This document shows positions 2 to 23,500 of a stretch of DNA of 64,000 nt, piece by piece (position 1 is the stretch's first letter; each line of letters opens with the position of its first letter). This DNA is from Cyanophora paradoxa CCMP329 (lineage: Eukaryota > Plantae > Glaucophyta): contig QPMI01000054.1 of the NCBI GenBank assembly GCA_004431415.1, positions 1 through 64,000 of the forward strand, written 5' to 3'. Below the pieces are notes generated by a model that was given only the letters and a program-made list of their open reading frames with translations, searched no databases and had not been told where the DNA came from. Made by a program: the position numbers and the translations under genes.

Positions 2-244
2 GCTCGGCAGGCGACGCTCTCTTCGATGGACCAGGTGCAGCCGATCTTAGAGGAGCTGGTGATTAAGTACTCGCGCTACGTGACCCTGGGGCCCGAGGCG
101 CGCCTGGGGATGGCCCTGGTGCAGACGGTGCTGGCGGTGCACGCGGCGAACGCGAACCCGGAGGTAATGAAGGAGGTGACGGAGGCGGCGGCCTCGACGG
201 CGGCGGAGCCCAGGGCGGTGGGCGGCAAGTTCAACGGCCTTTGA
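2..244 (+). CDS. 3' end of a DUF5767-like conserved NCLDV protein (frame open to the window edge)
   Basis: QPILEELVIKYSRYVTLGPEARLGMALVQTVLAVHAAN resembles the recalled EELxxKY...PExRL...H.xN pattern of this viral family. The frame is open from position 2. Confidence 0.5.
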   Translation, partial: ARQATLSSMDQVQPILEELVIKYSRYVTLGPEARLGMALVQTVLAVHAANANPEVMKEVTEAAASTAAEPRAVGGKFNGL

Positions 245-1520: not shown

Positions 1521-1645
1521 CGTTCAGGTGAGGGTCAGGTGAGCGCTCAGCTGAGTTTCAGGTGAGGGCAACTTGAAAATTCGGCGTCATTACGTCCGCG
1601 TCATTTACGTCAGCGTCATTTACGTCACGGAGTTGGGACTCGGCC
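1521..1645. promoter_or_regulatory. Divergent regulatory region: TCAGGTGA cluster plus CGTCATTTACGTCA (CRE/ATF-like) repeats
   Basis: Four TCAG(G/C)TGA motifs at 1521-1566, then cgtcattacgtccgcgtcatttacgtcagcgtcatttacgtcacggagtt at 1585-1635, a partial copy of the 2444-2533 module. Confidence 0.55.
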
Positions 1646-1718
1646 TGGCCCCCGGCCCAGGCCTCGCCCGTAAAAAAGGACTTGGACTTGGCGCCATTTT
1701 CTAAAGCTCTGCTGTACC

Positions 1719-2357
1719 ATGGAGCCGCTATCTCCCAGCTAGTCTCTCAGGGCGCCAAGCTCGACAAGGCCCTGAACATCTACCTTCAGCTGATCGAGCT
1801 GGCCTGGCCCGAGCCAATGATAGCTCAGGCCTGCAAATCGCTCCACGTGGCGTTCGATGCGCCGTTCTCAGGTGACCCGGATCAGGTGACATCCTGGACC
1901 AAGGAGGAGATAAAGGCCGACTTCGAGGCGCTTTTCTCATTTATGAGCAAGAAGTATGCCGAAATCGAAGCAGCTAAGGCCTCAGCAGCCGAAGGCGGTG
2001 AAGCCCCAGCCGAAGGCCCTGCCGGCGACCAAGGCACCGAAGTTCAAGGCGCTGGGCCCCTTGCAGAGGGCGAAGGCCAAGGCGGACCTGCGACCGCGTA
2101 GGCCCAAGGACATAGCCAAGGAGGCAAGCGGCCACAGGCCGGACTGGCCGGCGCCGGCGCCCTACCGCTACCTCAAGCTGGACAAGAGCAACGATACCGG
2201 CTTCACCAGGAGGAGGTGGCCTGAGCCCCTCAGGTGGCTGGAGCCAAGGGAGATCAAGTCCGGAGGCGGTATCGAGCTAGCGCTAGCGCTGGGCGGCGGC
2301 GGCGGTGCAGACTTGGAGGAGCAGGCCCTGCTAGATACCATCAACTTGGGCAAGTAG
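1719..2357 (+). CDS. Hypothetical viral protein (~210 aa, basic K/P/A-rich C-terminal half), frameshifted
   Basis: Joins ORFs 1682-2101 and 1956-2357 through indels near 1724 and 1980, giving MEAAISQLVSQGAKLDKALNIY...PKAVKPQPKALPATKAPKFK...INLGK. Confidence 0.5.
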
Positions 2358-2363
2358 AGCTGT

Positions 2364-3027
2364 GATATCTAGCTAGCTAGCGCTTGCTTAATTAACTCAA
2401 CTGAAGTTACCTGACATTTACCTGAAGGGTTGCGGAGGTTACCGAAGGGTCGCGTCATTTACGTCAGCGTCATTTACGTCACGGAGTTTGCCGGCGACTC
2501 GGGACTCGGGCCCAACTTCTCCCGGTAAGTTCGAGACTTGGAAAAATAGGGTATCCCTATTACTTATCGTTATTATTATTACTATTATCGTTATTCACAT
2601 TGAATGAATGCTTAAATCTATAAAAGCTGTACCAGTATCGGTGGCTACTAGTACTAAGCTAGTAGTACTAAGTAGTACCAAGTAGTACTAAGTAGTACTA
2701 CGTAGTACTAGCGGTACTAGTAGCTACTGGTCGTGACGAACTTACCGGGAGAAGTTGGGCCCGAGTCCCGAGTCGCCGGCAAACTCCGTGACGTAAATGA
2801 CGCTGACGTAAATGACGCGACCCTTCAGGTTAATTAATTAAGCAAGCGCTAGCGCTAGCTAGCTAGATATCGATACCACCTAGCTAGTAGCACTAGGACA
2901 CTAGGACACTAGGACACCGGGGGTACCCCCGCCGAGTTCAAGTCTCGAACTTACCGGGAGAAGTTGGGCCCGAGTCCCGAGTCGCCGGCAAACTCCGTGA
3001 CGTAAATGACGCGGACGTAAATGACGC
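2364..3027. repeat. Inverted-repeat module (90-bp arms at 2444-2533 and 2737-2826, AT-rich spacer, third copy at 2939-3027); candidate origin or terminal-repeat junction
   Basis: gaagggtcgcgtcatttacgtcagcgtcatttacgtcacggagtttgccggcgactcgggactcgggcccaacttctcccggtaagttcg and its reverse complement. Outer imperfect arms lie at 2364-2396 and 2835-2871. Confidence 0.9.
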
Positions 3028-4483: not shown

Positions 4484-4884
4484 TTACCTAGCCTTTAGAA
4501 AATAGTCGAGCTGGGCGCTCTGCAGGCGCGCGCCCTGGTAGGCGCCGCGCAGCTGCCACGCGAGCCAGATCGCAAGGAGCACCGCGGCGACGCCGGCGGC
4601 GATCTTGGCGTAGTGCCAGCCCTTCATCGCAAGCTCCGGCACGGCCGCAACCGCCTGCCCGACCTTCACGCCCGCGGCGCCCGTCCGATCGATTCCCGTC
4701 AGCGTGCTGCCGAGTGCGCCCGCGGCCACGTCGGCCCAGGAAGCTTGCCGTCGTTCTTTAGGATGAGCTCGTTGTTCTTGCGCTCGATCGTCGTGCTGAT
4801 CGCCGCGGCCAGGTTGAAGCTCGGCGGCGGCTGCGCGCTCTTCGGTCCGAAGACCTTGGTCAGCACGGCGTCCACCCAGCCCAT
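4484..4884 (-). CDS. Viral membrane protein (MG- start, C-terminal TM), one frameshift near 4733
   Basis: MGWVDAVLTKVFG...KNDGKLPG joined to DVAAGALGSTL...HYAKIAAGVAAVLLAIWLAWQLRG. Confidence 0.55.
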
Positions 4885-4910
4885 CTTTGACCTAGACTTC
4901 GAAAAACTAT

Positions 4911-5390
4911 CTAAATGACCAGGCCGCGCAGGTACCAGACCATCAGGAGCGAGCCGCCCAGCGCCACCAGCAGCGGCAGGTGCCCGTCCACGGCGCGCCG
5001 CATGCGGTTGTCGCACAGCTCCTGGCAGCTCAGCCGGTTGGCCTCGTCGAAGTAGGCGCTCACGGCGTAGGGGCGGTCGGCCGGCGGGTGCAGCCCCCGG
5101 CCCAGGCACGGGTAGGCCTCCGCCTGGCGCCGCGCGGCCAGCGCCGCCGTCGCCGCGTGCGCCGCCTCCCTCTGCCCCGGCGCGATCGCCACGAGGGGCA
5201 GCGCCCCCACGCTCCTGCCCTTGCCCGCCCCCTTGATCGTTTTCAGCGACGGCGGCGCGGGATCCGCCGCCTTCACCCTGGGCCCCTCCGCCGCCGCCCC
5301 GCCCTTAGCCCTCGCCGCCTCGCCGATCTTGCTGCATCGCGAATCCGATTTGAACACGGTGCACAGCAGCTTCTCTACCGCGCTCGACAT
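4911..5390 (-). CDS. Cys-containing viral protein with C-terminal TM anchor (159 aa)
   Basis: MSSAVEKLLC...LSCQELCDNRMRRAVDGHLPLLVALGGSLLMVWYLRGLVI. Confidence 0.6.
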   Translation of the reverse strand: MSSAVEKLLCTVFKSDSRCSKIGEAARAKGGAAAEGPRVKAADPAPPSLKTIKGAGKGRSVGALPLVAIAPGQREAAHAATAALAARRQAEAYPCLGRGLHPPADRPYAVSAYFDEANRLSCQELCDNRMRRAVDGHLPLLVALGGSLLMVWYLRGLVI

Positions 5391-5485: not shown

Positions 5486-5674
5486 TTAGCGCCCGGCGGG
5501 GCGCATGCCGGCCGCCGCCTGCGAGGCGCCGCCGGGGGCGTAGAGGGACTTGGCGGCGTAGCCGAAGCCCACGCCTATGACCGCCGAGGCCGTGGGGGTG
5601 CCGCCGAGGAGCCAGGTGAGGGTCGCGGCCAGCGCTCCTAGCGAGTAATGGGCAGGATAAGCTTCGAAGGCCAT
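5486..5674 (-). CDS. Small two-helix hydrophobic protein (62 aa)
   Basis: YSLGALAATLTWLLGGTPTASAVIGVGFGYAAKSLY. Confidence 0.5.
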   Translation of the reverse strand: MAFEAYPAHYSLGALAATLTWLLGGTPTASAVIGVGFGYAAKSLYAPGGASQAAAGMRPAGR

Positions 5675-5722
5675 CGCGGGACCGAATTGAGGGAGGGTTG
5701 AGAAAAAATACCGCCTCGGGCC

Positions 5723-8700
5723 TCAGTGGTGCAGGTGCCGGAAGCGCGCGTTGTCCTCGGCCTCCTCGCGCGCCGCCTGCTCCTCCGCCGCGTCGATCTC
5801 CGCCCGCGAGGCCTCCCGCGCCGCGGCCGACGCGTAGTCCTTGAGCACGGGCACGCGCCGGTAGCTGTAGCCGAGGCCCTTCGCCAGCCCCGCCGACTCC
5901 GCCTCGAACGCCCGCCAGCGCTCCGAGGCCTCCGCCCCGGCGATCTGGCCGGCGCGGAAGCCGGAGTCCAGCTCGGCGCGGAAGGCGATGGTGGCCTGCA
6001 GGCGCTGGGCCCAGAGGGCCTGGCGCCGCTCCTCCGCCTCGCGCGCCTGGCGCGCCGCCAGCGCCCGCCGCTCGGCCTCCTGCTGGGCCCCGAAGCCCTG
6101 GATCGCGGTGAGGACGGCGCCGGGGCCGGGGAGGGGGCTGGGGCCGTCGGCGCTCGCGGAGGAGGCCGAGCTCCCGTAGCCGCTCGGGCCCGCGCCGCCG
6201 TTCGTCGGGGTACCCTGCCCTTGGATCAGGAGGGGGGCGGGGGGAGGGGGGTACGGGAGGGAAGGCGGGGGTACGCGGGGCCGGACCTGGCGCGGCAGCA
6301 TCTCGTCGATGCGCTGCTGGCCGGGGCGCTGCTGGGGGGCCGTGGCGGGGGGCTGGGGCGGGAGGAAGGCCGGCGCCGAGTTGCGGGTGCGCTTGCCCTT
6401 GCCCTTGGTGTGGGGCTTGACGAGGAAGGGCCCGACGTCGGGCGCCGGGTCCTTGAACTGGGCGACGGGGATCGCGATCGCCTCCAGCGCCGGCTGGCTC
6501 TCGCCGAGGGAGAGCGGGGCCTTGGGGACGATGCCGCGGATGTAGGTCTGCCAGACGCCGCCGAGCTTGTAGGAGTAGGGGCGGCACCAGGAGCCGAAGC
6601 CGGCGAGGGTCTCGTCCAGCCGGCCGTTCTCGATGTCGGCGCCGACGGCGGCGGAGGTGTCGGGGCCCTCCGTGCGCGCGATGTACTCGACGATGCCCGC
6701 GACGCTCGTCATGTAGCCCTCCGTGTTCGGGGCGGCGACGTAGGTGGTGGGGTCGACGGCGCAGTGGGTGATGATGAAGCGGGTGAGGGGACAGGAGGCC
6801 GTCTCCTGCCAGAAGCCGAGGCGCTGCGCCCGCAGCCACGCCGGCTCGAAGGCCTGGATGCAGGAGGCCTTGCCGTCGGAGAGCGCGTGGATGATCTTCC
6901 ACGCGAAGGTGAAGGCCGCGACCATGAGCGCCGGCAGCTCGTTCTCGCGGATGTCGGAGTGGAGGTAGGTGCGCTTCTTGGCCGGCTTGTGGTCGAGGGG
7001 GATCAGGACGACGCGGGCGAAGAACTCGAGCATGCGGTTCTCGAGCTGCGCCGGGGCAAGTGAGAAAGGGCGCCGGGGAAGGGGAAGGGGGGCAGGGGAA
7101 CGGGCGCACCTGCGGGAAGCTGTTGCAGACGATGACAAGCACCTTGCGCGTAGCCTTGGTGCGCACATCGTCGCCGCGGACGTTCTTGAAGTTGCGGGAG
7201 TAGGCGTCGCCGGAGCGCATCTTGAGCTCCTCCTCCGAGCAGGCCTTAGGGTCGAGGCCCTCCGCCATCACCATGCAGATCGCCTCCTCGCCGCCGTGCT
7301 CCGAGAAGGCCGAGCCCTTGGAGGGGCGGTAGACGCAGACGCGGCCCGGCGGCAGGCACTCCGTCATGATCTGCGTCACCATCGACTTGCCTGTGCCCGA
7401 CTGGCCCTTGATGATGCCGCAGTACTGCAGCATGGCGCCCTCGGACGGCGGCTCGATCTCCGCGCGCGGCTCCCGGTCGAAGACGGGCTTGTCGCAGAAG
7501 TTCCACGGCCCGACGAGGTTGAAGGCGTAGAGGACGGCCGCCGCGTAGCCGAACTCGTCGGCCGTCACGTAGCCGTTGTCCGCCAGGTGCTTGACGACGT
7601 TGGGCATGAAGGGGTGCAGCATGCCGTACACGGTGGGCCAGTCGCAGGTCTCGGTCGCCTCCTCGATGCCCGCGGGCAGGCGCCCCTGGATGTAGCAGGT
7701 GTTCATGTAGCCCGCGTACCGCTCCCGTGCCTCCTCGTGCGTCATGACGAGGACGCAGGCGCTGCCCGTGCTGTCCTGCGGCGCCCGCACCACGAAATCT
7801 GCGCAAGGGGCGTCGGCGGGGGTACGGGGCGGGGCGCAGGGGTACGGGCGGCGCACGCGTGTCGCAGGCGAAGGCGAAGCCGGGGATGACGGGCATCTCG
7901 GGGCAGACGTCCTCGAGCTGGAGGGACTCCTCCACGAACGTGCGCGTCCGCCCCGAGAGCACCTCCTTCGAGAAGGTGAACTCGAAGGAGCCGGGGTTGG
8001 ACTCGTAGGTCTTGTGGAAGGTCATCGCCAGCAGCTGGATGACCTCCTTCATCGTCCCGCGCCCGGCGTGCCTGTTCGCGCTGACCTTGTCGTACACGAA
8101 GAGGTTCGGGAGCTCGACGTAGAAGGTGGGCGGGGAGTTCGGGCCGTAGGGTCTCTGGCGCACGATCCGCTGCGCCGGCAAAAGGGGGTTAGCGGGGTTC
8201 GAACGCGGGGAGGGGGGCGCACCGGCCGAAGGCGGCTCGGGCCCAGCGCCTTAAGCAGCTGGGCCACGGCCGCCTCCGGCCTCTAAGGGGGCGGGGCGCG
8301 CAGCTAAGGGGGGCGGGGCGCACGTTGTTCTTGACGAAGAGGCGGAGCGCATCCTGAATGGCCGCCTCCTTCTTGGACTTGTTGTCCTTGCTGTACGTTG
8401 TCACGTCGTCGTACTTGGACATGTCGATCTCGGGCGCCTCGCGCGGCTGCGCCGCCAGCTCCGCCCGCGCCAGCTCCAGCCTGGTGGCGCGCGGGGGCTC
8501 GCCGTCGCTCTCCGACGCCTGGCCGTCGTCGTGGTCCGCCTCCGCCTCCGCCCGCTGATCGCGCAGCAGCTGCCGCTCGCGCTCGCGCCGCTGCTGGGCC
8601 CGGCGGGAGAGGCGGCCGGCGCGGGGGGCCGGAGGGGGCGGAGGGGGCATGTGGCCGAGGGAGGAGGCGGGCGTGGCGACGGGCGTGCCCCGCGGCGGCG

Positions 8701-11201
8701 AGGGGATGGGGCGGGCGAGGGGGGTACCCTGGACGGAGGGCGGCGGGCGCTGCGAGGGCTGCGAGGGGCGGAAGGGACTGAAGGCCGAGGGGTTGCCGCT
8801 CGGGCGCCAGGAGACGTCGGAGGCGGCGGGGCTGGCGGGGGGCACGGGGGCGGGCGGGCGGCGGGGGGAGACGAGGGGCGGCCTGGGGCCGGCGTCGCCG
8901 GGCTCGTCGTCCGAGAACTCCTCGATGGGCGGCGGCGGGGCGCCGTCGAGGGAGGGGGAGGGCGGGAGGGGGTAGAACTCGTCGACGGGGGGCTCGGGCT
9001 CGAAGGTGTCCCCCGCCCCCGCCTCCACCGTCGCCGCCAGCTCCGCATCGGGCTCGCCCTCGCGCTCGCGCTCGCGCTCCAGCTCCATCGCGTACTCCTC
9101 CGCCACCTCCAGCTCGCGCGAGGCCTTCGCGTCCGCCGCCGCCGCCAGCGCGGCCTCCTCCTCCATCTCGCGCTCGGCCTCCAGCTCCTCCTCTGAGGGC
9201 AGGGTCATTCCTTTGCGCCTCTGGAACGCCCTAGGCTCAGAAATTAGGGGCGGGGAGGGCGCACCGGCCGCCTTGGGGGCCGCCGCCTCCATCTCCTCGC
9301 CGAGATCGCGCCGCGCCGCCGGGGCACCCGCCTCCTCCTCCTCGAACCGCAGGTCGATGTAGGCGGCCTTGCCCTTGCCCTTGCCCTTCGCCTGGGCCTG
9401 GGCCTGGGCCACGCGCATGGCGCGCGCGAGGCCCTCCGCCGTGATCATGCTGCCGCCGGCCCGGGCGCCCGAGGCGGAGGCCGTCGCCTCGCCGATCGCC
9501 GCCTGGAAGGCCGCGGCCATCGCCTGGCCGGCGCGCGGCAGGCTCCGCGCCCGCTCCAGCTCCTCCTCCGTGAAGTCCAGCGCCCGGGCCGCGGCGGCGG
9601 CCTCGGCCTCGCGCTCCGCCTCGGAATCCGAGTCGGAATCCGAGGACTCCGCGGCCGCGAGCATGGGGCGGGGGCGGGAGGCGGCGGCGGCGGCGGCGGC
9701 GGCCGCCTTGTCGAAGACGGGGACGAAGAAGGTGAGGGCGAGGGTGCGCCGCGGCACCACGTACTTCACGGCGCCGTGGATCATGGGCCGCCCGTGCGAG
9801 TCCGGCATCGAGCACCGGCGGATGACCTGCGAGGGGGTTTAAATGGCATCTAAATAGTCTAAATAGCATCTAAATAGCATCCAAATAGAAACGGCTGGAA
9901 ACGGCGCACCTGCACGCGGTCGCCGATGGTGACGCCGGGCACCTCGAACTCAGGAACCAGGTCGAAGGCGCAGATGCCCTGGCGCCCGTGGCGGTCCCGG
10001 CACGTCCGGCAGGCCGCCTCCAGCACGATGCGGATGGCGTAGGCGTCGGTGAGGACGCCGGTGTCCGGCCGCTCGCCCCAGACCGCCGAGCTCTCGTGGC
10101 GCGTGATGAACGCGCGGCTGTTCCGCATGATGCAGCGCGCCTCGACGCCCATGATGCCCTTCGCCAGCCTCTGCGGGCCGGCGGGGGTCGGCGGGGAGGG
10201 GCGGCCGCGGCTGCACGGGCGGCCGGGGGCGCACCTCGGGCGTGTAGGCCGGGTCCGAGCTGAGCACCAGCAGCCAGAGCAGGTGCGGGGCCGCCTCCGC
10301 CATGCGGTTGAAGTAGAACTCCTCCGGGCCCGCCAGCAGGCCAATCGTGCGCCACTCGCCCTTGGCGATGTGCCGGGGCACGGCGCCCATGAGCAGCCGC
10401 AGGCGCTGCGCCGCGAACAGCCGGCGGGCGTCGGCATCGCGCCCGGGCTTCGGCTTGCTCGGCGTGTCGAAGTTCTCCTCCGTCATGTTCAGCGCCGCGT
10501 GCATCGCCCGCACGTCCGCGTCCTGCGAGCGCGGCGGCGCCTCAGCCGCTGCGAGCCGAGCGCGCGAGGGAGAAAGAGGCAGCGAGCACCTCCGCGAGCC
10601 GCAGCCGCGACAGGACGGAGTCGATGGAGAACTGCACCGACGGGCCGGGGGCACCCTCGGCGTTCAAAGTCCGCGCCGCGGCCAGCTTGCGCTTGCGCTC
10701 GGCCAGCTCGGTCTTGCGCAGCACATCCTTGCTGTTCGGGCTGAACTGCATGCCATCCTCCAGCGCACGCGCCTGCGCCTCCTTCGCCTGGTCGCTGATA
10801 CCGGCCTCGAACACCGTCCAATCGACGCCGAAGCTGTCGCCGATGCAGAGAACGTCGTACAGCGTGTTCTTCGCCAGCTTAGCCGGGATCTCCGGAGGGA
10901 GCGCGAGCCGAGACATGCTGCTGCCGCCGATGCTGCCGCCGGTGCTGCGCGCGCTCTGCTGGGAGTGCTGCGCGCGCTGCGAAGGTTCTGGCGCCAAGGT
11001 TCCAGCCGATTTGAACGAGCGGCCTGCATTGCATCGCCGGACTGGGCAGTCAAAAAAAGCGAGAAACCGACCGGGGTTCGAGCCCAAGGGGGGTACGCAT
11101 TTTGAAGGGGGGGAGAAGCGGGCTTCAAGTCTGAGTCTTCGCGAGTTGGGAAGGGAACAAGCCAGCGGGGGTACGACGTTGAACGGAATCCGTTGAGACA
11201 T
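5723..11201 (-). CDS. Large multi-exon protein (~1,550 aa) with an SF3 (D5-like) helicase domain; start uncertain (10916-11201)
   Basis: Walker A GIIKGQSGTGKS (~7385-7415), Walker B ICMVMAE, motif C VLVIVCN, Arg-finger-like EFFARVVLI. Frame-restoring or in-frame GT-AG introns at 10523-10599, 10171-10234, 9827-9909, 8283-8323, 8170-8222, 7799-7856, 7046-7109 and 6215-6286. Confidence 0.8.
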
Positions 11202-11221
11202 CGCGGGCAGTAACACTCGCG

Positions 11222-13699
11222 ATGCAGGCGGCGACCTTCCGCTCGTGCGCGAAGCAGCAGCAGCCCGGCGAGCAGGACAGCATAGCCCGCGATCTCGGCA
11301 GCCTGTCGGCGGAGGAGGCGCTCAACGCGATGACCTGCGATAGCGTGTTCAACTCGGCCGGCGTGCCGCGCTTCGAGCCGTTCGGCGGGCTGAAGAAGAT
11401 CCAGAACACGGACGGCCACCCGAAGCGCTTGAAGACCAAGGGCCAGTTCACGCCGGTGAATAAGTTCAACGAGGTTCGCGGTTTCGCCCGCACCGCTTCG
11501 GCCCCGGCTCACATGCCCCGGCTCGCGTGCCCCGCGCGCAGATCGTGCCTTACAGCATTCACGAGCTGCCGGAGCATGTGAAGGCGAAGTACGGCTTCAC
11601 GCACGGCGATGTGGCGCTGTTGCTGATGTCCGACAATGCGGCGGCGGGCTGCTTCAACAGCATCGCGCTCCATCGCGATTTCCATCCGCGCGCGATCTTC
11701 TCCGGCACTCCGGAGCAGAAGGAGTTCCTCGCGGACCTCAAATCCGGCAGCGGCGGCGCCCACGGGGTGAGGGCCCTTCCCTGCGCTCGCGTGCCCGCGC
11801 TTGCTCACGCCCGGGCCGCCGCAGCTCTTGATCGCGCGGGATCAGTGCCTGGCGTCGGTGACGGAGAAGGAGAAGGCCAGCCCGTCCGGCCTCGGCGTTC
11901 GGTGCGATTACGTCATCGTCACCAAGCGCATCAACCCGACGTACGCCAAGAAGTACGACCTCAACTTCGTCTACGTGAAGGAGGGGCCGCCGGCCTCGCA
12001 GTACACCGTCACCGTCCAGGCCGGCATCTGCGCCGGCGAGACCATCCAAGGCGCGTACCACGGCGTCGGCACGCTCCCGTCCGGCGGCTTCTTCGACGTC
12101 GTTGATCACATGTTCCTCTCCTGCGCCGATGACATTTACGTGCGCGAGAGCCCGCCCTTTCCCCTTTCCCCTGCCCCTGCGCGCGCTAAGGTCGCGTCCG
12201 CAGGTCGGAGAGAACCCGAGCGCGGAGAGCCCGCTGGGCTACGCGTACTGGCTGGTCAGCGTGCAGAAGGTGCTCTCCTGCGCGGCCCTTCTGAAGTACG
12301 CCAGCGTCTGCGACTCCGGCATGCGGCCCCAGCTCCAGCTTCTCGTGGATCAGGGCCGGAGCGACGAGACCCGCCAGCGCCACCGCGATCTCGCGCGGAC
12401 GGCCGTGCTGAAGCTGGAGGAGGTTCTGCGCGAGGGCCACCCAAACGGGCCGGCCCGCGCCCGTGAGATCCTCTCGGCGGCCATCTCCGTGATCGTCGGC
12501 GAGCTCTCGCACACGGTCCGCCGCCGCCCCGCTTAGCCCGCCTCTCCTCCCTGACCCCGGGCCCTCGGAGCGCAGGAGGAGTCGGACGTTCTCACGGCGC
12601 GGGCGGACGAGTTCCAGCGCCAGGCGGAGAAGATCAAGTGCTGGTACGAGAAGGTGAAGAAGGCGGAGGAGACGGACCTGCGCGACTGGGGCAGCAAGAG
12701 CGGCGACGCCGAATTCGACCGCGACAAGCTCAAGCGCGTCTTCTTCTGGATGCGCATCTGCGCCAAGCTGGAGGCGCTGATGGACGAGTGGCACATCGAG
12801 GGCGTCCGTCTGGCGAAGGCGATGATCGCCATGGAGTGGGGCCACGGCCACCCGGCGCGCAAGGAGTGCAGCATGCTGGCCAAGGAGATCGGCCGCCGGG
12901 GCCGCTACATCAAGGAGGTGGCCTACGGCATCGAATGTGCGTCCGCCCCGCCCTTGGCCTGCGCCCCCGCCCTTGGCCTGCGCCCCGCGCTCTCCCCGCT
13001 CACCCCCTCTCCCGCAGTTACCATCCCGCTCGTCCAATTCTTCCAGCGCGAGTTTGTGCTGATCCAGGCCTCCATCATCAAGATCGGGTCGCTCTCCGCC
13101 AAGGAGGTGGACGAGGCAAGGGACGAGGGCCAGGCGGAGGCGGAGGCGCGCTGGGACGATGCGGCGTTCAGCGCCGTCTGGGGCGTCGGGACAACGCGCT
13201 CTCGCCCCCCGCCCCGTTCGGCTTCAGCGGGCGGCCCGCGCTGGCGTTCGACGAGCACGGCCTCCCCGAGCTGGCGGAGGCGGACGCCGTCGGCTTCAAC
13301 TGGGCGACGTTCGAGGCCCGCATCGACGAGAAGGCGAAGGAGGTGCAGATGCGGCTGCTGGAGGAGGGCCTCGTCCCGGCGCCGGTGCCCGCGCCCTTCC
13401 CCCTTCCTCTCCTCCTCGGCCCCTCTCACCGCCTCCTCCAGCCCCCGGCGTCCTCGGCTCCGGCGCCCTTGGCTCCGGCCCTCTGCCCCACCTACGGAGA
13501 GAGGTGCGCCCACGGCGCCGATTGCGCCCTCAACGGCTCCCACCTCCTGCCCGCCAAGAAGGCCCGCCTCGGCCTCTTCTCACCCCACCCTCTCAGCCCG
13601 GTGAGTGACTCTGAATCGGAGGGCTCGGAGGCCTATAGCACGCCCCGCGACCCCGACGCCCCGCCCCACAAGGCCGGCGCCTTCGGCTTCTGTGAGTGA
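11222..13699 (+). CDS. Multi-exon orphan protein, divergent from the helicase gene; may extend to ~14202
   Basis: Coding-like exons joined by GT-AG introns at 11474-11541, 11767-11824, 12140-12203, 12516-12575 and 12937-13017. Probable indel near 13185. No family recognised. Confidence 0.65.
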
Positions 13700-14256
13700 C
13701 GCCCCCGCGCAGGCCCTGCCGACGCCGCCCGTCGCCAACCGCACCGTCTTCGTCCAGGTGAGTGCCAGGGCTGCCGCGAGTGGCGGCTCGAGAACTTCTC
13801 GGCTCAGGTCCCCGCCACGCAGCAGGCCGGCGCGATCCCGGCCTCGCCGCCCGTGACCGTCGACGTCGAGGGCGGTATGTTCGAGATGGAGCTGGAGCCG
13901 GCGCCCTCGCAGGCCCTCGCCACCCAGGGCTCGGCCCCGGGCTCGCCGCCGCCGTCCCAGCCCTCCCTCCCGCTGGTGCACGCCAACTCCAACATCTTCG
14001 AGGGCTGCTGAGGGCCCTGAAACGGTGCGCGCAGGCCCGTCCCGCCCTCCCAGAGCAAGTGGTCCACAACGCCATAGTGGACGCCATGTGGGATAACAGG
14101 GGCCGCCTCCCCCACCCCTTCCGCTACGTCTCTATGGCCCTCCGCGGCCTCGCCTTCCCGCCCCCTGCACCGAGCAGCTCAACCAAATCCTGCGCGGTCT
14201 GATTCATTACAGACTCGCCTACCCGGCCTGGGCCTGAGCTACACCAAGCTACGGTG

Positions 14257-14392
14257 AGTCCGACCAAGCCCTGTCCCGGGTCCCGGAAAATTTATATTAA
14301 GATTCCAAAGACCTGGGACAGAAGTAGTCTGACCAAGAGACGTGTCCGGACCCTCCCAATAATCATATAGAGTATTGGAAAGGTCCGGACAC
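14257..14392. terminator. Twin 51-nt hairpins between convergent genes (putative 3'-end signal or protein-binding site)
   Basis: ctgtcccgggtc...gacctgggacag (14271-14321) and gtgtccggacc...ggtccggacac (14342-14392). Each is preceded by agtc(c/t)gaccaag. Confidence 0.5.
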
Positions 14393-15056
14393 TAGAGGAG
14401 GGCGTACGACTTAAACTCGCGCAGCGCCGCCTGCTCCTCGCTGAGGTTCTCTGACTTCATTCGATCGCTGTAGGGCTCGGGCGGCGTGCCCTCCTTGACG
14501 TGCATCCAAAATAGATGTAAGCACTTCCTCATGAGCTTGATGTACCTCTCGTCCCGTCTGACGTACCACGTTTGCACGCGCAGAGGAGTGAAGCAAAAAA
14601 GTTCGGCCCACTCGCGGCCCGTTATGTCCAGCAGGCCCTGGAGCTGGGGCATGTAATAAGTTGGGACCTTTTCGTAGAGTTCTTGTTTGTAGGGGCATTT
14701 TATTTCAAGTATACGATCGCTTCCAATCAGCCCGTCCGGGCTGCCGCCAGGAAGGGCAGTTCCTTATGTTCGTGCAATCCAGTATGTTGCACGTCCACGT
14801 TGTTGTTCGACGTTTTGTAGAGAGAGACCGCGAAGGGCTCATAGTCATGCCCGTAGGTTAGCGCAGGGTTGTCGAAGTTGTTTTCCTCCGCTATGCCGCT
14901 TAGCTCCGCCCAGAGGCGGGCCCTGGATTTCCAGGGATTTATGCCGCACGCAGCCGCAAAGTTCGAGGCAGTTAGCTTTTCGCGGCGCGCCGCGTGCCAC
15001 GCCGCGCTCCCCTGTTGCAAGTTCTCGCAAGTCTCGCAATCTGTATCGGTATGCAT
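14392..15056 (-). CDS. YqaJ-like viral recombinase / lambda-type exonuclease, one frameshift near 14742
   Basis: QQGSAAWHAARREKLTASNF...YGHDYEPFA...PFLAA(S)PDGLIGSDRILEIKCPY...YYMPQLQGLLDIT. All hallmark YqaJ motifs are present once one base is restored. Confidence 0.92.
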
Positions 15057-16830: not shown

Positions 16831-17652
16831 CACTGCCGGCGCCGCAGTGCGGCAGTGCAGCGGCACTTAGTGACTGCACTGGCAGCCCAGTGGCATGGCA
16901 GGCTCTTGACATGTGGCCACTGGCCACCGGGCCGATGAATCCCAAATTCCCATGCAAATTGATGCAATTCGTTTGAAAGAGTTTTTATTTGGGGTACAGC
17001 ATTGTTGACTTCCGGCGTCTTCCGCAAGCTATAGAGGCGGGGGCCCCGGGCTCGATCGCGAGCCTCCAGTGCCCTCCACGCTCGAGCCCGAATTGCCAGC
17101 TCGAGCCGAGCTCGAGCCGGGAGTCCGGGACCCCTCGAGCCGAAAGCCGGCCGCGGCTAGCACTCGAGCGGGTGGAGGAAGGGGGTACGTAGTGCCAGTG
17201 CCACTGTGCCAGTCTTGTATAACATCGATATATATACTAGTAACTTCGTAATATTCGGCAATTCGACGACAAACGGCACCCTCATGCATATGTGATCACA
17301 AAGCCCCACCCAGCTCGAGCCGGCGCCGGCTGATCATATATATATAATTCATGAGCTGCAGCTGTGCCCCTACGTACTAGGTCTTCGACTCGCCCCCGCC
17401 CCCGCTCGTCTCAGGAGGTGCAAGGTGGGGTCTAAAGTAGGGACGCTGGCAGAGTACAAAAAATATATAATTATATATAACTTAGTAAGTAATACTCAGC
17501 GAGCATATATACAACTAAGTATAATGCTAGGCGTAGGCGGCTAGGCCTGGGCCTGCGCGCAGCGCCGCCCGGCGGCCGCCCACAGTGCCTCCGCCCCGCC
17601 CGGCGAACTGCACCGCCGCCTGCACCTCCGCCCCGCGGGCCGGTGCCAGGAG

Positions 17653-17830
17653 AGCTGCGCCGCCGCCTGCCGAGCCGCGCCGCCGCCTGCCGAGCCGCGC
17701 CGCCGCCTGCCGAGCCGCGCCGCCGCCTGCAGAGCCGCGCCGCCGCCTGCCGAGCCGCGCCGCCGGCCGGCTGAGCCGCGCCGCCGGCCGGCCGATCATG
17801 AGCTGAGCTGCCACGCGCGCGTCGCGCCTC
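17653..17830 (+). repeat. 20-bp minisatellite (GCCGCCTGCCGAGCCGCGCC, ~6-7 units) plus unique tail
   Basis: Tandem units are directly visible. Positions 17781-17830 are identical to 29041-29090. Confidence 0.9.
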
Positions 17831-17831
17831 A

Positions 17832-18437
17832 CAGAACGGCAAGAGGCACGCGGCCTCATCGTTCGAGCGCGACCCGCTCCACGTCTGGCCGCACTTCCGG
17901 CGCGCCCCCTACATTCACGTCTACATTCCCAACGCGGAACACCACGCGGACTTCCTGACGCGCTGCCTCGGCGAGCGTGGCGACGCGATGGAGACGGCGT
18001 ACCCCCATGCTCGAGAAGCCTTGAAGGTGCTGGGCGGGGCGGTCCTCGTCCCCTATTTTCAGTACCCGTGCACGGACTGCGCGGGTACAAGCGACGAGGC
18101 CCGGGCGGAGGCGCTCTACTGCACAGAGCACAACCTGCCACTCCACCATCCCACCAACAACCGCCCCTGCCCCGCGAAGCGAAGCCAAGTAGCAGCGGCC
18201 AGGGCCGCCGAGGCGGCCGAGCAGCAGGCCCAACGGGCCGAAGTTCGGAAGCAGTGGCAAACCCCGGCGCAGATCGCGTTGGCGGACGCGGCGCGGGCGA
18301 ACGCCGAACGGCAGCGCAAGCAGGACGAGGACCGCGGCGAGGTGGCAGCTCGGGCCCGCCAGCGCCTAGAAGAACGGATGCAAGGCAGCCGGCCTGGCGG
18401 TGCGGGACCCAGCTTCAAGCGCAACCGCAGTGGCTGA
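17832..18437 (+). CDS. C-terminal part of retrotransposon ORF1 (Cys/His knuckle-like motif plus coiled coil)
   Basis: Frame is open from the junction (QNGKRHAASSFERDPLHVWPHF...) through CTDC...H...C to the stop at 18437. Confidence 0.55.
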   Translation, partial: QNGKRHAASSFERDPLHVWPHFRRAPYIHVYIPNAEHHADFLTRCLGERGDAMETAYPHAREALKVLGGAVLVPYFQYPCTDCAGTSDEARAEALYCTEHNLPLHHPTNNRPCPAKRSQVAAARAAEAAEQQAQRAEVRKQWQTPAQIALADAARANAERQRKQDEDRGEVAARARQRLEERMQGSRPGGAGPSFKRNRSG

Positions 18438-18438
18438 C

Positions 18439-20598
18439 ATGAGCCCGAGTGCGCTCGAACTACCCCCCATTTATAGTTTTAATGCTCCAGCCGCCCAGCC
18501 TGCCCCGCCCTCACCGACGGCCCCGCAGACCCCGATCCGACCTCGCGCGTACCCAGCGCTTCTGGACCCGCCCCCCGCCCCTCTCCCCGCGCGACATAGA
18601 TCTAGATCCGAACCACTCTCCCGCACCGCGCGCGCTAGCGCTGTCTCCCCGCCCAGAGACCCCGCTGTCTCCCCCGCCCCCGCGATGCCGGCCTTGTCCT
18701 CTCGCCGAATGCACCATATCCTCGATCCCCACCTCTTCGCCTGCCCCCCTCGTGCCCGCGTGCTAGGATGCCGTCCCGCTTGCAACGTGCCCGGACATTG
18801 GGCACCGGGTCCCAAGGGGAGACCGCGAGCCACAGGCCGCGGGGGGGACACTCGAAAGGCAAGGCCACCAAAGACGCTAAGGCACCTCTCAAGCAAACAG
18901 GGCAGGCCTAGCCTCAAGCTCACCCGCAGCCCGCGAGAACCGAGAGCGGAGGGAACCGGAATGGGGGATCTAAACGTGATCATCACTCCTCCGCGGAACA
19001 AAGCAGACAGAACGCCGCCGGATCTATACCTACGGGCTCTGGCTCCCCGGCATCGACGCCGTCACCACCTTCCGACCAGTCCGCGAAGAGTCTACGCCAC
19101 CGCGGCCACAGTCGAAAGCACGTCGGCGGGCACCACTGCCACTCGCCCGGACCTCCGGCTGCGCCCGCAGTCAACCGTGGGCAAGCGAAGACGCCGCGTC
19201 GACAAGAGCGGTGATAATAAGTCCACGCGCACCCTGCAGAAGCTCGCTGCACCACCCCGGCTCGCCGGCCCACTGCGCCTCCAAACAAGCATGACGGCGG
19301 GGCACCCGCCGCCTCGCGCACTCCCGCCCCGATCCCCGTGGCCCCAGGGGGTCGGCCGACCAGTCAACCAAGCGCACGTGGACTCCGGGCTCGCCGCTGA
19401 TCCGGGTGCGCTGAAGGATCACGGGCCGGAGCGCGCGCCGCTGCGGCAGAGGCTGCGACACGCAGGTCACAATGAGGACGAGATGCTTCTGCTCCACCTC
19501 GTCCCAGAGATGATAACAATCGAACTGTCTATGCCTAAGACCGAACTGCTCAGGCTCGGGCCGCCTCTCCTGGAAAAGTCGAATGCCAGGGGCGCATCGC
19601 CAGAGCGTCGAAGTCACCTCACGAGCGCGCCGAACCGGGCCGGTCCACTGAGCTCGCAGACGCTCGAGAAGAGCGAGATGGCTAACGCGAGATGTGATCG
19701 GCTCACCGCGAGGCCGGCCGCCACACGCAACAGCACGCGGCACTCTAGGCATTTTGGCGGGGTGCCACTCCCTTCGCTGCCGCTGGCAGGTGACGCGGAA
19801 CATGATTGCGCAGCTGGACCTCGGCTAGCTAATGGCACCGAGCGCCCTGCCCGCCCAAGCACTCCCGTACCCCCCCACGGATTCTCCGGGAATTTCTCCC
19901 GCTGCATGGCCGCAGCGAGCAACGAGCCGGCGGTCGAAGGGACCTACACTCGGGTCCGGATAGCCTATGGGGAAGTCCCCAACGCCAGCCTTCACCCCCC
20001 GCACATACCGGACGTCACGGTCCTGCTGGAGGCGAGCGGCGACCACTACGCCCTCTTCAATGGGCGCACGCACCACCTCCTGGTCGTCCCCGGCGACATT
20101 GAGCGCGTGACGGCACTGCGAACGACGGAACACGCGGATGAACTTCGCGTCCTGATGTCGGATGAGACGAACTGGCAGGCAACTGGGAGCCGCCGCGTGG
20201 GGAGCATCACCCTGCGATGGGACGGCAAGACCGTGCGCTCCCGCGTCTGGCTAGCTGGTCCGCCACCGCATACGCAGCACGCGAAGTGCCGATCGTCCTT
20301 CCAGCACCGACTGCGCTCGCAGGAACGCGGGGCTCAGGGCGCGTGGTGCTTCCAGCGGCGTCTCGGCCGCTGTCACAGATGCACGAATGCCTCCTCCGGA
20401 ATCAAGAAGCGCAAGGCCCGCAGCACTTTCCCCGCATGGCTGACCCCACCGTTCCCCGGCCGCCGCTGCTCGGCTGGCTCCGCTCTCCTGGCTATTACCT
20501 TAGCTAGCTATGAGGGCCCTAACAGAGGCGCCCACGCTCCCCGCCATGTCTTAAATACAGATGCAGTCTCTTTTTGCCTGCGCGTCGCCTGCCCCTAA
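18439..20598 (+). CDS. Additional ~720-aa ORF, or N-terminal extension of ORF2
   Basis: The ATG is 1 nt after the ORF1 stop (tgaCatg). The frame is stop-free for 2.1 kb and overlaps the ORF2 start. The segment at 19906-20300 looks globular. Confidence 0.4.
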   Translation: MSPSALELPPIYSFNAPAAQPAPPSPTAPQTPIRPRAYPALLDPPPAPLPARHRSRSEPLSRTARASAVSPPRDPAVSPAPAMPALSSRRMHHILDPHLFACPPRARVLGCRPACNVPGHWAPGPKGRPRATGRGGDTRKARPPKTLRHLSSKQGRPSLKLTRSPREPRAEGTGMGDLNVIITPPRNKADRTPPDLYLRALAPRHRRRHHLPTSPRRVYATAATVESTSAGTTATRPDLRLRPQSTVGKRRRRVDKSGDNKSTRTLQKLAAPPRLAGPLRLQTSMTAGHPPPRALPPRSPWPQGVGRPVNQAHVDSGLAADPGALKDHGPERAPLRQRLRHAGHNEDEMLLLHLVPEMITIELSMPKTELLRLGPPLLEKSNARGASPERRSHLTSAPNRAGPLSSQTLEKSEMANARCDRLTARPAATRNSTRHSRHFGGVPLPSLPLAGDAEHDCAAGPRLANGTERPARPSTPVPPHGFSGNFSRCMAAASNEPAVEGTYTRVRIAYGEVPNASLHPPHIPDVTVLLEASGDHYALFNGRTHHLLVVPGDIERVTALRTTEHADELRVLMSDETNWQATGSRRVGSITLRWDGKTVRSRVWLAGPPPHTQHAKCRSSFQHRLRSQERGAQGAWCFQRRLGRCHRCTNASSGIKKRKARSTFPAWLTPPFPGRRCSAGSALLAITLASYEGPNRGAHAPRHVLNTDAVSFCLRVACP

Positions 20599-23500
20599 CG
20601 CACCGGATACGGAGGTAGCTCAGCCCGCCGCCACGCAAGCCCAGCCAGCCCCCCTCACCCTCACCTTCAGTAGTCTCTTCCCGCCCGCGCACTTTGCTGC
20701 TGGGAGCCCTCTCATAGGCCCGGCGCCCGCCCTCCCCCGCCACAAGCCCGCCGGTGCTCTCAGAGTGATGACGTTCAACACAAGGGGCACGTCGGCGGGC
20801 CGGCTACAGCAGGCGGAAGACTTTGCGGCGAAATGGGCACTAGATTTGATGGCGCTGCAGGAGCTCTCGATTTCGAATGCTGAGTTGCAGGCGGCTCTCT
20901 TCACCCCGGCCGCTGCCCCCGGCGAGGCCCCGCTCAGCTCGATCACGCGCGGGAGGCTGATCCACTCGATTAAGAAATCGAAAACCAAAGGGAACGGGAC
21001 TGCTCTCTGGGTCGCCGAGCCGTGGGCGCGCCACATCGCGCGGCACTACCGCTGCCCGGGCAGACTCGCCGGGTGTGAAATCCGCCTCAAGGCGAACCGC
21101 CAGCTGTTCGTCGCGAGCGTCTACATGCCTCCCACCGAGAGTAAACCTGAGCACATCGCGGATCAAAAGGCGCTGATGGGGTGCCTCGAGCGCATCAACG
21201 CGGACTTTCGCTCTCGCGCGAAAGCTCACCTGATTCTCCTGGGTGACTGGAACTCTGTTGCGATCCCGGCCATCTCCCGCATTCGTCAAGGCAGCTTCGT
21301 CCAGTCCCAGATACCGGAACGCGCGTGGTGGGGGACGCTGCGAGGCACTTGGGGACTGTTGGATGCGGCAGAAGAGAAAAGAAAAGGAGCGGAGGTCACC
21401 TTTATTGCCCGCCACGGCCCGCCAGCGGAGACATCGGGGGCCCCGCCAGTGGACGACGACGAAAACGGGGACTCGGCGGCCGAGGCGCCGGAACTCGTGC
21501 TGGACGACCGCCTGCTGGATCCTGCGCCCGACGACGTTATCATCTCGGCGGGGCGCATCGATGCGGTGCTTCACTCGGCGAGCCTGAAAAAGGCGCTGCG
21601 ATCGGTACATGCACTGCCCCGAGCCGTGGCCATGCCGCACCCCTCCGATCACCTTCCCGTCATGGCCGACTATGACCTGAAAACGGCGGGGCTCAGCCAG
21701 CCAGCCAAGGACGAGGCGCGCCCGGCGAAGCCCCCGCCCCTCTTCGCGCTGCACCTCATAGACAAAGAAAAGCTCCCGGCGTTCCGAAAGGCGGTGGAGG
21801 AGCGCTTGAAAGGACTGGAGACAGAACTGGACAAGGCCCTGAACGGCGTCGGCGGCGGCACCGACGAGGAGCGGCGGGAGCGAATCGGTACCCTCTACCG
21901 GCGGGCCACCGAGGACGTGCTGGCGCTAGCTAAAGAACACAAGTGCCTGAAAGCGCGCGGCTCCCGCCCCGCGAACCGGCGGCCGGTCGCATGGCAGCTG
22001 GTGATGGACAGGAAGGTCGGTCGCCTACTCGCTGGATGGGCTGCAGAATCCGCTGGAGGCTTACCATCATCCCGATTGATCACCCGGATCGAGAAACTTG
22101 AGGGCCTCGTCAAAAGCCTCGTCCCGGGACCCGAACCCATGCCGCGCCGCCTCGTCCGTGACCCGGACGACGCAGCGCCCTTCCCGGCCCGCTACGGGTC
22201 GTGGCGACTCTACTTCAAGCTCCTGAACAACTGGCGGAACCGCGTTCGCAGACGCCACCAGAAAGAGACGAGCGCAGAACGTAACCGGCAGATCCAGGAG
22301 TTCGTCACGGCGCGCCAGGCACGCTTTGCGGACCCGCGCCAGCTGCGCAGCTATCTAAACTCTGTACTTGAACGCTCGCGCGGGGAGCCGATCATGCACG
22401 TCACGCGACTAGCGCGCGACGGAAACTTTTACGAAATTTACACGTCCCCCGATGAGGTCAAAGCCGTCATGGCCGAGCACTGGGAGCAATGGTGTGCCAA
22501 ACGCAACCCCCAGCTTGGCGGCACAGTCGACCTGGTGCCCGACTCCGCGCTAGACTACCTGCCCCCCGACTTCTGGCGTGCAGCCTACCGGCCCCTGGTT
22601 CTGCAAGCTGGTGCAGCAGATGCATTCGCCGGGACAATGATCGAGCCTACGTACGAGGAGCTAGGGGCGTACGTGCGCTCGCTGACAGACGGGGCGGGCG
22701 GGCCCTCGAACTGCACAAACGCAATCTTGAAGACGCTCTGGAACCCGGAGCTGCCCGACGCGATGGATCCGGAGGCGTACCCACCCCGCGGGCGCCGGCT
22801 CCTGATGGCGATCGTCTGCGAGGTGCTCCGCCTCCGCGACCTGCCCAGCGAGATGTGTGAGAGCAACATCTTCGGGATCCCGAAGAAGGGGGTCTGGGAC
22901 GGGGACATCGAAGGCAATCTCCGCCCCATCACGCTCCAAGAGGTCGGCCTGAAGCTAGCAACGGGCCTGCTCACGAAGCGACTAGCGGATGCTATAGAGA
23001 AGCACGGGGTGCTGAAGGGGGTGAACTACGGCTTCAGGAAAGCCAAGTCAACGGACGACGCCTTGCACCTCACGGTGGCCATCCTAGAGGACGCTAAAGA
23101 GCACCAAAAGCCCATCTATATCTTGCTCCAGGACATCCGGCGGGCGTACGACTCAGTGTCGTGGGTCAGCATGGAGCTCTCCCTCCGCCGGATCGGGGCC
23201 CCGGAGGGGTACATTGACCTGCATCGCAATATCTTTGAGCGCCGGCGCGCGCGCGCGATCACGGGGCACGGACTCTCTGACGCCTTCGAGCTTGAATGCG
23301 GCCTTCCGCAGGGCGGCATCGAGTCACCGCTCCACTGGCTCATCTTCTACGATGCCCTCCTCTGCGCTCAGCAAGAGTTGGACAGAATCGACTGCGATCA
23401 AGGCGGGGAGGGGGTCGCGTACGTTCTGGGCGATGCGGTCGCGGACGCCGGGCAGCCCCGCGCGCGCGTCACGGGGTGCGCGTACGCGGACGACACCCAG

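Follow-up and report, generated by a model that had tools for sequence, protein, structure and literature searches.

A spliced, multicopy gene for a likely D5/P4-type helicase in the genome of the glaucophyte Cyanophora paradoxa

Introduction

Spliceosomal introns are described in print for the viral genes of mirusviruses, decaying giant-virus insertions, pandoraviruses and some chloroviruses (passages of PMC12768974), and are indicated for the giant endogenous viral elements (GEVEs) of Chlamydomonas too (PMC9693826 and bioRxiv 10.64898/2026.10.09.758095). GEVEs have also been reported from the glaucophyte Cyanophora paradoxa, where they are methylated and mostly silent according to parts of PMC12344493, one supplementary file of which does not mention the contig considered here. 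The words 'virus', 'viral' and 'helicase' do not occur in the C. paradoxa genome paper (PMC6704402). The present work concerns a minus-strand gene of C. paradoxa CCMP329 on contig QPMI01000054.1 (assembly GCA_004431415.1), of which positions 1 to 64,000, hereafter the window, were analysed; an earlier note, made from the letters of this DNA, had read the gene as a viral-type superfamily 3 (SF3) helicase interrupted by eight spliceosomal introns. We know of no virus described for the glaucophyte phylum, and no paper on one turned up; nor was any description of the helicase family found in the published literature on Cyanophora with helicases, endogenous viruses, polintons, virophages or giant viruses.

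With moderate confidence, we explain the locus as an expressed nuclear gene with eight short GT-AG introns and a product of 1,519 amino acids (aa), likely a much-diverged replicative helicase of the D5/P4-type SF3 group and likely the replication gene of an old endogenous DNA virus or mobile element that occupies at least 33 loci. Together with a YqaJ-type nuclease encoded nearby, the helicase would make up a replication module of viral or plasmid type (helicase plus recombinase), which would also include an unknown divergent partner protein. Such a unit would have multiplied by copying of its DNA, introns included, and the element would be either a long-standing resident of an intron-rich genome or one that replicates in the nucleus. 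A viral origin of the helicase gene is what we infer; no particular type of virus or element is assigned, as neither capsid nor polymerase nor integrase genes were detected in the window.

Gene structure and splicing

The evidence for splicing comes from assembled contigs, rather than reads, of six runs from three studies (X15, X16, X17, X18, X19 and X20). Joints were counted for each intron in four runs (X15, X16, X18 and X20), and a second set comprised X15, X17 and X19 together with the DNA run X1. All eight introns of the helicase gene are skipped in transcript contigs, with joints that read CT..AC on the plus strand, equivalent to GT..AG on the strand of the gene (Table 1), and these joints recur in variant transcript contigs that are 95-99% alike. 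Contigs of the DNA run are unbroken across 7518-8216, 8266-9662 and 10170-11092, with the introns retained or with indels within them. The helicase gene is expressed, and its RNA is spliced at eight short GT-AG introns of the spliceosomal (U2) type. Splicing of the transcript at introns of the host type implies processing in the nucleus, in keeping with what the earlier note had proposed, and we infer transcription by RNA polymerase II (Pol II).

Joining the exons at the RNA joints yields a translation of 1,519 aa without a stop, identical letter for letter to tig00000204_g17674.t1 (P0001), a gene model of EukProt EP00741 Cyanophora paradoxa. The eight-intron gene model is therefore already present in the public annotation, which was built with BRAKER1/Augustus on RNA-seq according to parts of the genome paper (PMC6704402). 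Both the public model and a paralogue (P0013) start at the ATG at 10916, which shortens the span to 11201 given in the earlier note; the 285 nt from 11201 to 10917 form an open in-frame leader without support as coding sequence, and the product, put at about 1,550 aa, is corrected to the length given above. Working from the letters alone, seven GT-AG introns (67, 64, 83, 41, 53, 58 and 64 nt) had given a single minus-strand frame of 1,587 aa from the ATG at 10916 to the stop at 5725-5723, and the scattered minus-strand open reading frames (ORFs) between 10916 and 5723 show the codon-position G+C pattern of coding sequence. The protein includes an acidic, proline-rich linker of about 430 aa and a coiled C-terminal tail.

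The eight introns of the coding sequence measure 58-154 nt (mean 79 nt) and all have GT-AG ends, six of them starting with GTGCGC and seven ending in GCAG, much as the earlier note had said of most of them. Its count of eight spliced GT-AG introns is backed by RNA in the six runs, once the junctions it had proposed to map are given corrected coordinates. Its lengths of 41-83 nt did not hold: what had been read as introns of 41 and 53 nt are the opposite ends of a single 154-nt intron, the last intron is 72 nt long, and an additional in-frame intron of 72 nt lies at 9264-9193. The two in-frame 72-nt introns (9264-9193 and 6286-6215) are invisible to ORF logic; the former is required to reproduce P0001, and the DNA contig of X1 that spans it (8266-9662) is unbroken. 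The placement of one intron between helicase motif C and the Arg finger, also claimed in the earlier note, is confirmed by intron 7 (7109-7046), which sits between the positions of these motifs at 7142-7116 and 7024-6995.

Three alternative models were rejected. A mini-exon at 8282-8223 (60 nt, between the 41- and 53-nt introns of the earlier note) keeps the frame and is present in no contig shown; a last intron of 67 nt (6286-6220) breaks the frame and was replaced by 6286-6215; and a first intron of 41 nt (10589-10549) brings in stops once the ATG is correctly placed.

Intron 3, with 43% GC, is AT-rich for a gene that otherwise exceeds 70%, and consists of tandem units of about 11 nt resembling TATTTAGATGC, of which the DNA run X1 lacks one (10 nt, at 9888). 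Downstream of the stop codon, a further intron in the 3' untranslated region (UTR; 5711-5638) takes out the ATG of a small membrane-like ORF (5489-5722). In the same place (5638-5718), five RNA runs contain a variant in which the 79 nt following the helicase stop are replaced by six letters, and X15 and X16 instead splice 5638-5711.

Helicase assignment

The assignment to SF3 derives mainly from a profile-profile comparison. An alignment of the family was compared by hhalign with a template composed of P4 alpha and ten phage primase-helicases that are 20-28% identical to it. The trimmed family alignment matched the template with a probability (Prob) of 92% (P 6.7e-7) over 141 columns (aa 997-1144), from Walker A to beyond the Arg finger. 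As controls, reversing the template gave P 0.63, and shuffling its columns 20 times gave P 0.052 at best. With the untrimmed family alignment the match was Prob 67.6% (P 4.9e-5) over 103 columns, in which the CN and AR of the query fall on the columns of the invariant template residues N220 and R235. ESM-Atlas features of aa 770-1320 point the same way: all seven match sets shown scored 0.96-0.97, and six of the seven are clusters with DUF5906, some with D5_N or Pox_D5 and several of them viral. This agreement is taken as a lead rather than a test.

In Pfam, exon 7 searched alone reached RNA_helicase at E 0.065 (14.2 bits against a cut-off of 21.5; model positions 3-104 of 105) and DUF5906 (PF19263) at E 0.12 (13.5 bits against 27.6; model positions 2-94 of 114). 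The product is thus not filed as a Pfam member and is probably a distant relative of DUF5906. A compact ATPase core of the SF3 type and D5/P4 kind is moderately supported by these comparisons and is considered likely. Like the D5 and P4 alpha proteins, the core would act as an ATP-hydrolysing ring helicase; its Walker A, Walker B, B' ('LK..sGD'), motif C Asn and Arg finger all fit into a stretch of about 115 residues. A primase domain was not detected, either among ESM-Atlas matches for aa 1-335, none of which was usable, or by Pfam on the full protein.

Several results weigh against an SF3 assignment. The two hhalign runs disagree in register between Walker A and Walker B, and the hhalign controls were confined to reversed and shuffled templates, as distinct from other P-loop families. 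Pfam searches of the full protein and 28 family members returned AAA_22 alone, below cut-off (13 of the 28 members), with DUF5906 and RNA_helicase absent. No match was found in NCBIfam, among PHROGs with exon 7 at E<=0.1, or in sequence searches of the PDB with either the protein or its profile. A phmmer search of exon 7 against 1.84 billion representative proteins returned 10 matches, all of them family members at 62% identity or more, so that the link to known helicases is carried entirely by pairwise profile comparison and language-model features. AlphaFold2, run on aa 770-1321 with a 28-row alignment, gave a mean predicted local distance difference test score (pLDDT) of 32.7, unusable for assigning a fold.

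These results raise the alternative that the protein is a generic P-loop nucleoside triphosphatase outside SF3, its likeness to D5/P4 proteins being an artefact of shared Walker motifs. The recurrence in Pfam of AAA_22 only, the lack of a usable fold and the failure of hhalign to find a relation with the single P4 alpha sequence (Prob 0.2%) would fit such a protein. However, the profile alignment does not stop at Walker A: it goes on for about 100 residues and takes in B', the Asn of motif C and the Arg finger, at the short spacing typical of SF3. Moreover, no shuffled or reversed control fell below P 0.052, and the ESM matches are nearly all to DUF5906; a generic P-loop protein is accordingly rated very unlikely. 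The helicase reading of the earlier note stands in so far as a D5/P4-type core is indicated by profile-profile alignment and ESM features, and falls short in that all curated profiles remain below cut-off. That note had taken a spliced product that does not match SF3 profiles as evidence against itself, which is formally what Pfam returned (DUF5906, exon 7 only, at the bit scores above); by sequence comparison, it is only the profile-profile alignment that rescues the assignment after this failure.

The gene family and its linkage to YqaJ

The helicase gene belongs to a family of 28 proteins and seven further ones, all of them C. paradoxa gene models, on 33 contigs. Many members are fragments of 195-640 aa. 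Compared with the window copy, family members are mosaics of blocks whose identity ranges from about 50% to 100%, a pattern suggestive of recombination or gene conversion among diverged copies. For example, P0013 is 97% identical over aa 3-109 and 57-68% identical over the remainder. If the fast-evolving C-terminal tail is set aside, there are 17 variant sites, 11 of them synonymous. In 10 of 14 aligned paralogues, indels cluster at aa ~478, the site of intron 4, which hints at an intron shared among the aligned paralogues. As judged by sequence searches, the family is found in C. paradoxa only and has no relative elsewhere.

The YqaJ-type gene lies 3.5 kb from the helicase gene. Its cluster at 90% identity comprises seven named proteins (13 accessions), and for five of the seven a helicase family member is present on the same contig, two to four gene numbers away. 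The recurrence of this distance indicates that helicase and YqaJ travel together. In IMG/VR, 199 stretches hold YqaJ relatives at 27-35% identity, some of them on contigs named GVMAG, and when window ORFs were compared with the ORFs around viral YqaJ genes, YqaJ alone matched.

The explanation of the locus given at the outset also has points on the opposing side. The helicase alignment found no relative in IMG/VR or JGI metagenome contigs, and helicase profiles did not match any ORF around viral (0.97 Mb) or metagenomic (0.13 Mb) YqaJ genes. Pfam detected no capsid, polymerase, integrase or packaging gene among 203 window ORFs, a scan of limited sensitivity for diverged or intron-split genes. 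The locus counts are those of automatic gene models, many of which are fragments. Finally, the transcript runs are labelled only 'RNA? (a guess)' and none is on record as RNA, their nature being judged from the GT-AG joints only.

The viral relatives of YqaJ bear on a further explanation, namely that the family consists of GEVE remnants: a decayed D5 primase-helicase of the Nucleocytoviricota, which would have acquired its introns once integrated and would owe its many copies to segmental duplication rather than to mobility of its own. Besides the GVMAG contigs among the 199 stretches, this would account for some of the ESM matches, which are Nucleocytoviricota clusters with DUF5906 and D5_N, and it has precedents in the GEVEs reported from C. 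paradoxa (parts of PMC12344493) and in the spliceosomal introns published for decaying giant-virus insertions (passages of PMC12768974). Yet the Pfam scan of the 203 ORFs found no giant-virus hallmark (major capsid protein, PolB, A32 ATPase, VLTF3 or RNA polymerase), and the 0.97 Mb around viral YqaJ genes contain no helicase relative. Whereas viral-origin genes of C. paradoxa are methylated and mostly silent according to parts of PMC12344493, the helicase gene is present in transcript contigs of three studies. In addition, 33 loci with near-identical blocks look more like a proliferating unit, and descent from GEVE remnants is considered unlikely.

What the introns mean

The introns are best viewed against those of the host. 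Parts of the genome paper give 9.2 introns per C. paradoxa gene, with a mean of 86 bp, and 13-27 introns in bacterial-derived genes (PMC6704402). Given the host density and the introns of the divergent neighbouring gene (at least 11), the eight introns of the helicase gene are ordinary, as for any resident gene. They are also not copies of an introner, since the introns of the helicase and neighbour genes resemble one another no more than shuffled sequences do (best score 24 against 22).

The earlier note had instead concluded that intron gain was limited to one gene class, perhaps early genes, and did not reflect general domestication, on the ground that neighbouring genes lacked introns. This holds for the YqaJ gene, which is a single exon, and fails for the divergent neighbour with its 11 introns; SSB and GNAT genes, which the note had listed among the intronless neighbours, were not found by Pfam among the 203 window ORFs (56, 18 and 129). 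A virus transcribed by host Pol II with introns confined to its early-class genes, the others being intron-free, could still appeal to the single-exon YqaJ gene. It is opposed by the introns of the neighbour, by two further plus-strand introns at 4714-4812 and 4858-4930 and by the host average, and neither SSB nor GNAT is at hand to test the contrast; we regard it as highly improbable. The helicase introns are ordinary introns of the host type, are not confined to one gene class in the region and have no special 'early gene' meaning.

Neighbouring genes and window context

The helicase gene and its divergent neighbour face away from each other across a region that likely serves as a bidirectional promoter (Table 1). 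The neighbour encodes a protein of about 750 aa to which no Pfam family could be assigned. Its C-terminal part (13283-13372, plus strand) shares a peptide of about 30 residues with the N-terminus of the helicase (10841-10752, minus strand), at 50% identity by tblastn and with the pattern F.VDW.VFEA.I.....AKE.Q.R.LE.G, which may be a common docking or targeting motif.

The frame of the YqaJ gene is split by a one-base gap behind 14743; a C inserted there in four of four runs, DNA included, restores it, and the 211-aa YqaJ paralogues are colinear with the window gene. Extra bases occur in the same four of four runs behind 4738 (G) and 13187 (G) as well, the latter restoring the frame of the neighbour, and all three are probably long-read assembly errors or a strain difference. 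RNA contigs show two plus-strand GT-AG introns (220 and 67 nt) at 14254-14583 that extend over the 3' part of YqaJ (14395-14763, minus strand), so that the RNA there is at least partly antisense to YqaJ.

The window has a G+C content of about 59-84% and holds a retroelement of the long interspersed nuclear element (LINE) type (RVT_1 and Exo_endo_phos, 20555-25906) as well as the host signal-peptidase gene SPC12, which together mark it as eukaryotic chromosomal DNA. This ordinary context is among the points in favour of a domesticated or native cellular gene family with a host function and no present link to a virus or mobile element, in which the linkage to YqaJ would have arisen by tandem segmental duplication. 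An intact frame of 1,519 aa that is expressed and spliced, the excess of synonymous variants (11 of 17 sites) and an intron density like that of host genes agree with such a family. On the other hand, many members are fragments with mosaic identity, the family is absent from all other organisms in the 1.84 billion representatives, and family descriptions place D5/P4-type helicases and YqaJ nucleases typically in viruses, plasmids and prophages. We therefore think a host gene family improbable, and retain the replication gene of an old endogenous virus or mobile element as the preferred explanation.

Other features of the window stand apart from the helicase gene. At 1597-3027 there are four doublets of a 15-nt unit, GCGTCATTTACGTCA, two on the plus and two on the minus strand (eight matches against 0.01 expected). 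The same interval contains three 90-nt copies, 99-100% alike and ending CCG|GTAAGT, which flank an AT-rich tandem-repeat core and look like a repeated promoter and 5' leader exon with a splice donor. Arrays of 20-nt tandem repeats lie on either side of the LINE-type element (17559-17844 and 28214-~29000), and an ORF at the left window edge (2-241, plus strand) matches DUF5767 below threshold (E 2.5e-4, 21.5 bits against a cut-off of 26.9).

Table 1. Features of the helicase locus and its neighbours in the window (positions as in the contig; runs X15, X16, X18 and X20 for joint counts out of four)
Feature	Position	Strand	Remarks
Helicase coding span	5723..10916	-	Nine exons, eight introns, 1,519-aa product; stop codon 5725-5723
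Exon 1 (aa 1-109)	10590..10916	-	Holds peptide GDSFGVDWTVFEAGISDQAKEAQARALEDG at 10841-10752, recurring in neighbour protein
Likely SF3 (D5/P4-type) ATPase core (aa 997-1144)	6923..7430	-	Profile-profile alignment, ESM features, sub-threshold Pfam matches
Walker A, GQSGTGKS (aa 1005-1012)	7406-7383	-	Aligned with template invariant G128, G133, K134
Putative Walker B, ICMVMAEG (aa 1047-1054)	7280-7257	-	Fits template 'hhhh.E' by eye and in trimmed-alignment hhalign; register differs in untrimmed run
Putative B' motif, ELKMRSGDAY (aa 1064-1073)	7229-7200	-	Fits template 'LK..tG.D' by eye and in trimmed-alignment hhalign; register differs in untrimmed run
Motif C (VIVCN)	7142-7116	-	Asn on template motif-C Asn column in both hhalign runs
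Arg finger (FFAR)	7024-6995	-	On template Arg-finger column in both hhalign runs
Intron 1	10523..10589	-	67 nt, GTGCTC...GCAG; joint 10521>10589 in 3/4 runs (X15, X16, X20); X1 unbroken across 10170-11092
Intron 2	10171..10234	-	64 nt, GTGCGC...GCAG; joint 10170>10235 in 3/4 runs (X15, X16, X18); X20 has the same 64-nt skip in shifted register
Intron 3	9827..9909	-	83 nt; joint 9824>9908 (cut +2) in 4/4 runs
Intron 4	9193..9264	-	72 nt, in frame, GTGCGC...CTCAG; joint 9192>9265 in 2/4 runs (X15, X16 only), sides 30 + 24 letters
Intron 5	8170..8323	-	154 nt; joint 8169>8324 in 4/4 runs; X15 record 2 joins 8324 directly to 8169
Intron 6	7799..7856	-	58 nt, GTGCGC...GCAG, phase 1; joint 7798>7857 in 4/4 runs; X1 unbroken across 7518-8216
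Intron 7	7046..7109	-	64 nt, between motif C and Arg finger; joint 7045>7110 in 4/4 runs
Intron 8	6215..6286	-	72 nt, in frame, GTCCGG...GGCAG; joint 6213>6286 (cut +1) in 4/4 runs and in 3/3 RNA runs of the second set; 0 X1 contigs
3' UTR intron	5638..5711	-	74 nt, GT-AG, just past the stop; joint 5636>5711 (cut +1) in X15 and X16 only (one study), sides 37 + 28 letters
Neighbour gene	11222..14583	+	Divergent; 11 spliced GT-AG introns between 11474 and 14583; joints in X15, X17, X19
Likely bidirectional promoter and 5' UTR region	10917..11221	.	ATGs 10916 (-) and 11222 (+) face away from each other; X15 contig reaches 11039
YqaJ-type nuclease gene	14395..15056	-	Single exon; PF09588 at 66.6 and 27.1 bits on two ORF halves, cut-off 22

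Significance and comparison with known systems

The helicase family is unnamed and undescribed, and would be a new instance of genes of viral or plasmid type that live in a protist genome and carry introns of the host type. The apparent confinement of introns to one gene class dissolves, as the host puts about nine short introns into each gene, acquired genes included, and the neighbour has more than the helicase. Moreover, nearest-match screens for viral genes cannot see this family, because it has no sequence relative outside the C. paradoxa genome. If the unit proves to be mobile or virus-derived, it would add a type of replicon to the glaucophyte phylum and would offer a clear example in which the gain of introns by acquired genes could be dated. 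A bolder possibility, which we rate as unlikely, is that the unit is a new kind of DNA element or virus, adapted to the nucleus and still active, and the first such replicon described in glaucophytes. Its replication module would combine a YqaJ recombinase with a D5-like helicase that has diverged strongly and with the partner of ~750 aa, which would share a docking peptide with the helicase. Such an element would carry native spliceosomal introns and would have spread to at least 33 loci by DNA-level copying and recombination.

Polinton-like and virophage-type elements often carry an SF3 helicase as a replication gene. The helicase family resembles polinton-like viruses and virophage-type elements in having many integrated copies in a protist genome together with a likely helicase of this type. 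Unlike them, the helicase locus has no relative in IMG/VR and has none of their hallmark genes detectable by Pfam in the 203 ORFs (double-jelly-roll capsid pair, packaging ATPase, protease, integrase and polymerase); to our knowledge, YqaJ is also not their usual partner.

With the GEVEs of green algae and the intron-rich mirusviruses, the locus shares virus-type replication genes that reside in a protist nuclear genome and contain short canonical GT-AG introns (passages of PMC12768974). It differs from GEVEs in that no capsid, polymerase or transcription hallmark was seen by Pfam in the 203 ORFs, in being a small and highly repeated unit, and in being transcribed rather than silent. In contrast to the introns of intron-bearing viral genes, those of the helicase match the density of host genes and do not mark a viral gene class.

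The closest comparison is with the D5/P4-alpha primase-helicases, the SF3 proteins (DUF5906 PF19263, D5_N and Pox_D5) of giant viruses, phages, satellites and plasmids. Unlike these proteins, the C. paradoxa helicase lies below curated cut-offs, has no detectable primase domain, and carries an acidic linker and a coiled tail; unlike their genes, it is encoded by a nuclear gene of nine exons, with 33 loci in one genome and none elsewhere. What it appears to share with them is the arrangement of its motifs, with Walker A, Walker B, B' ('LK..tG.D'), the Asn of motif C and the Arg finger ('R..hIPh') in the same succession and at the same distances, as well as a conserved domain N-terminal of the ATPase and more conserved sequence C-terminal of it.

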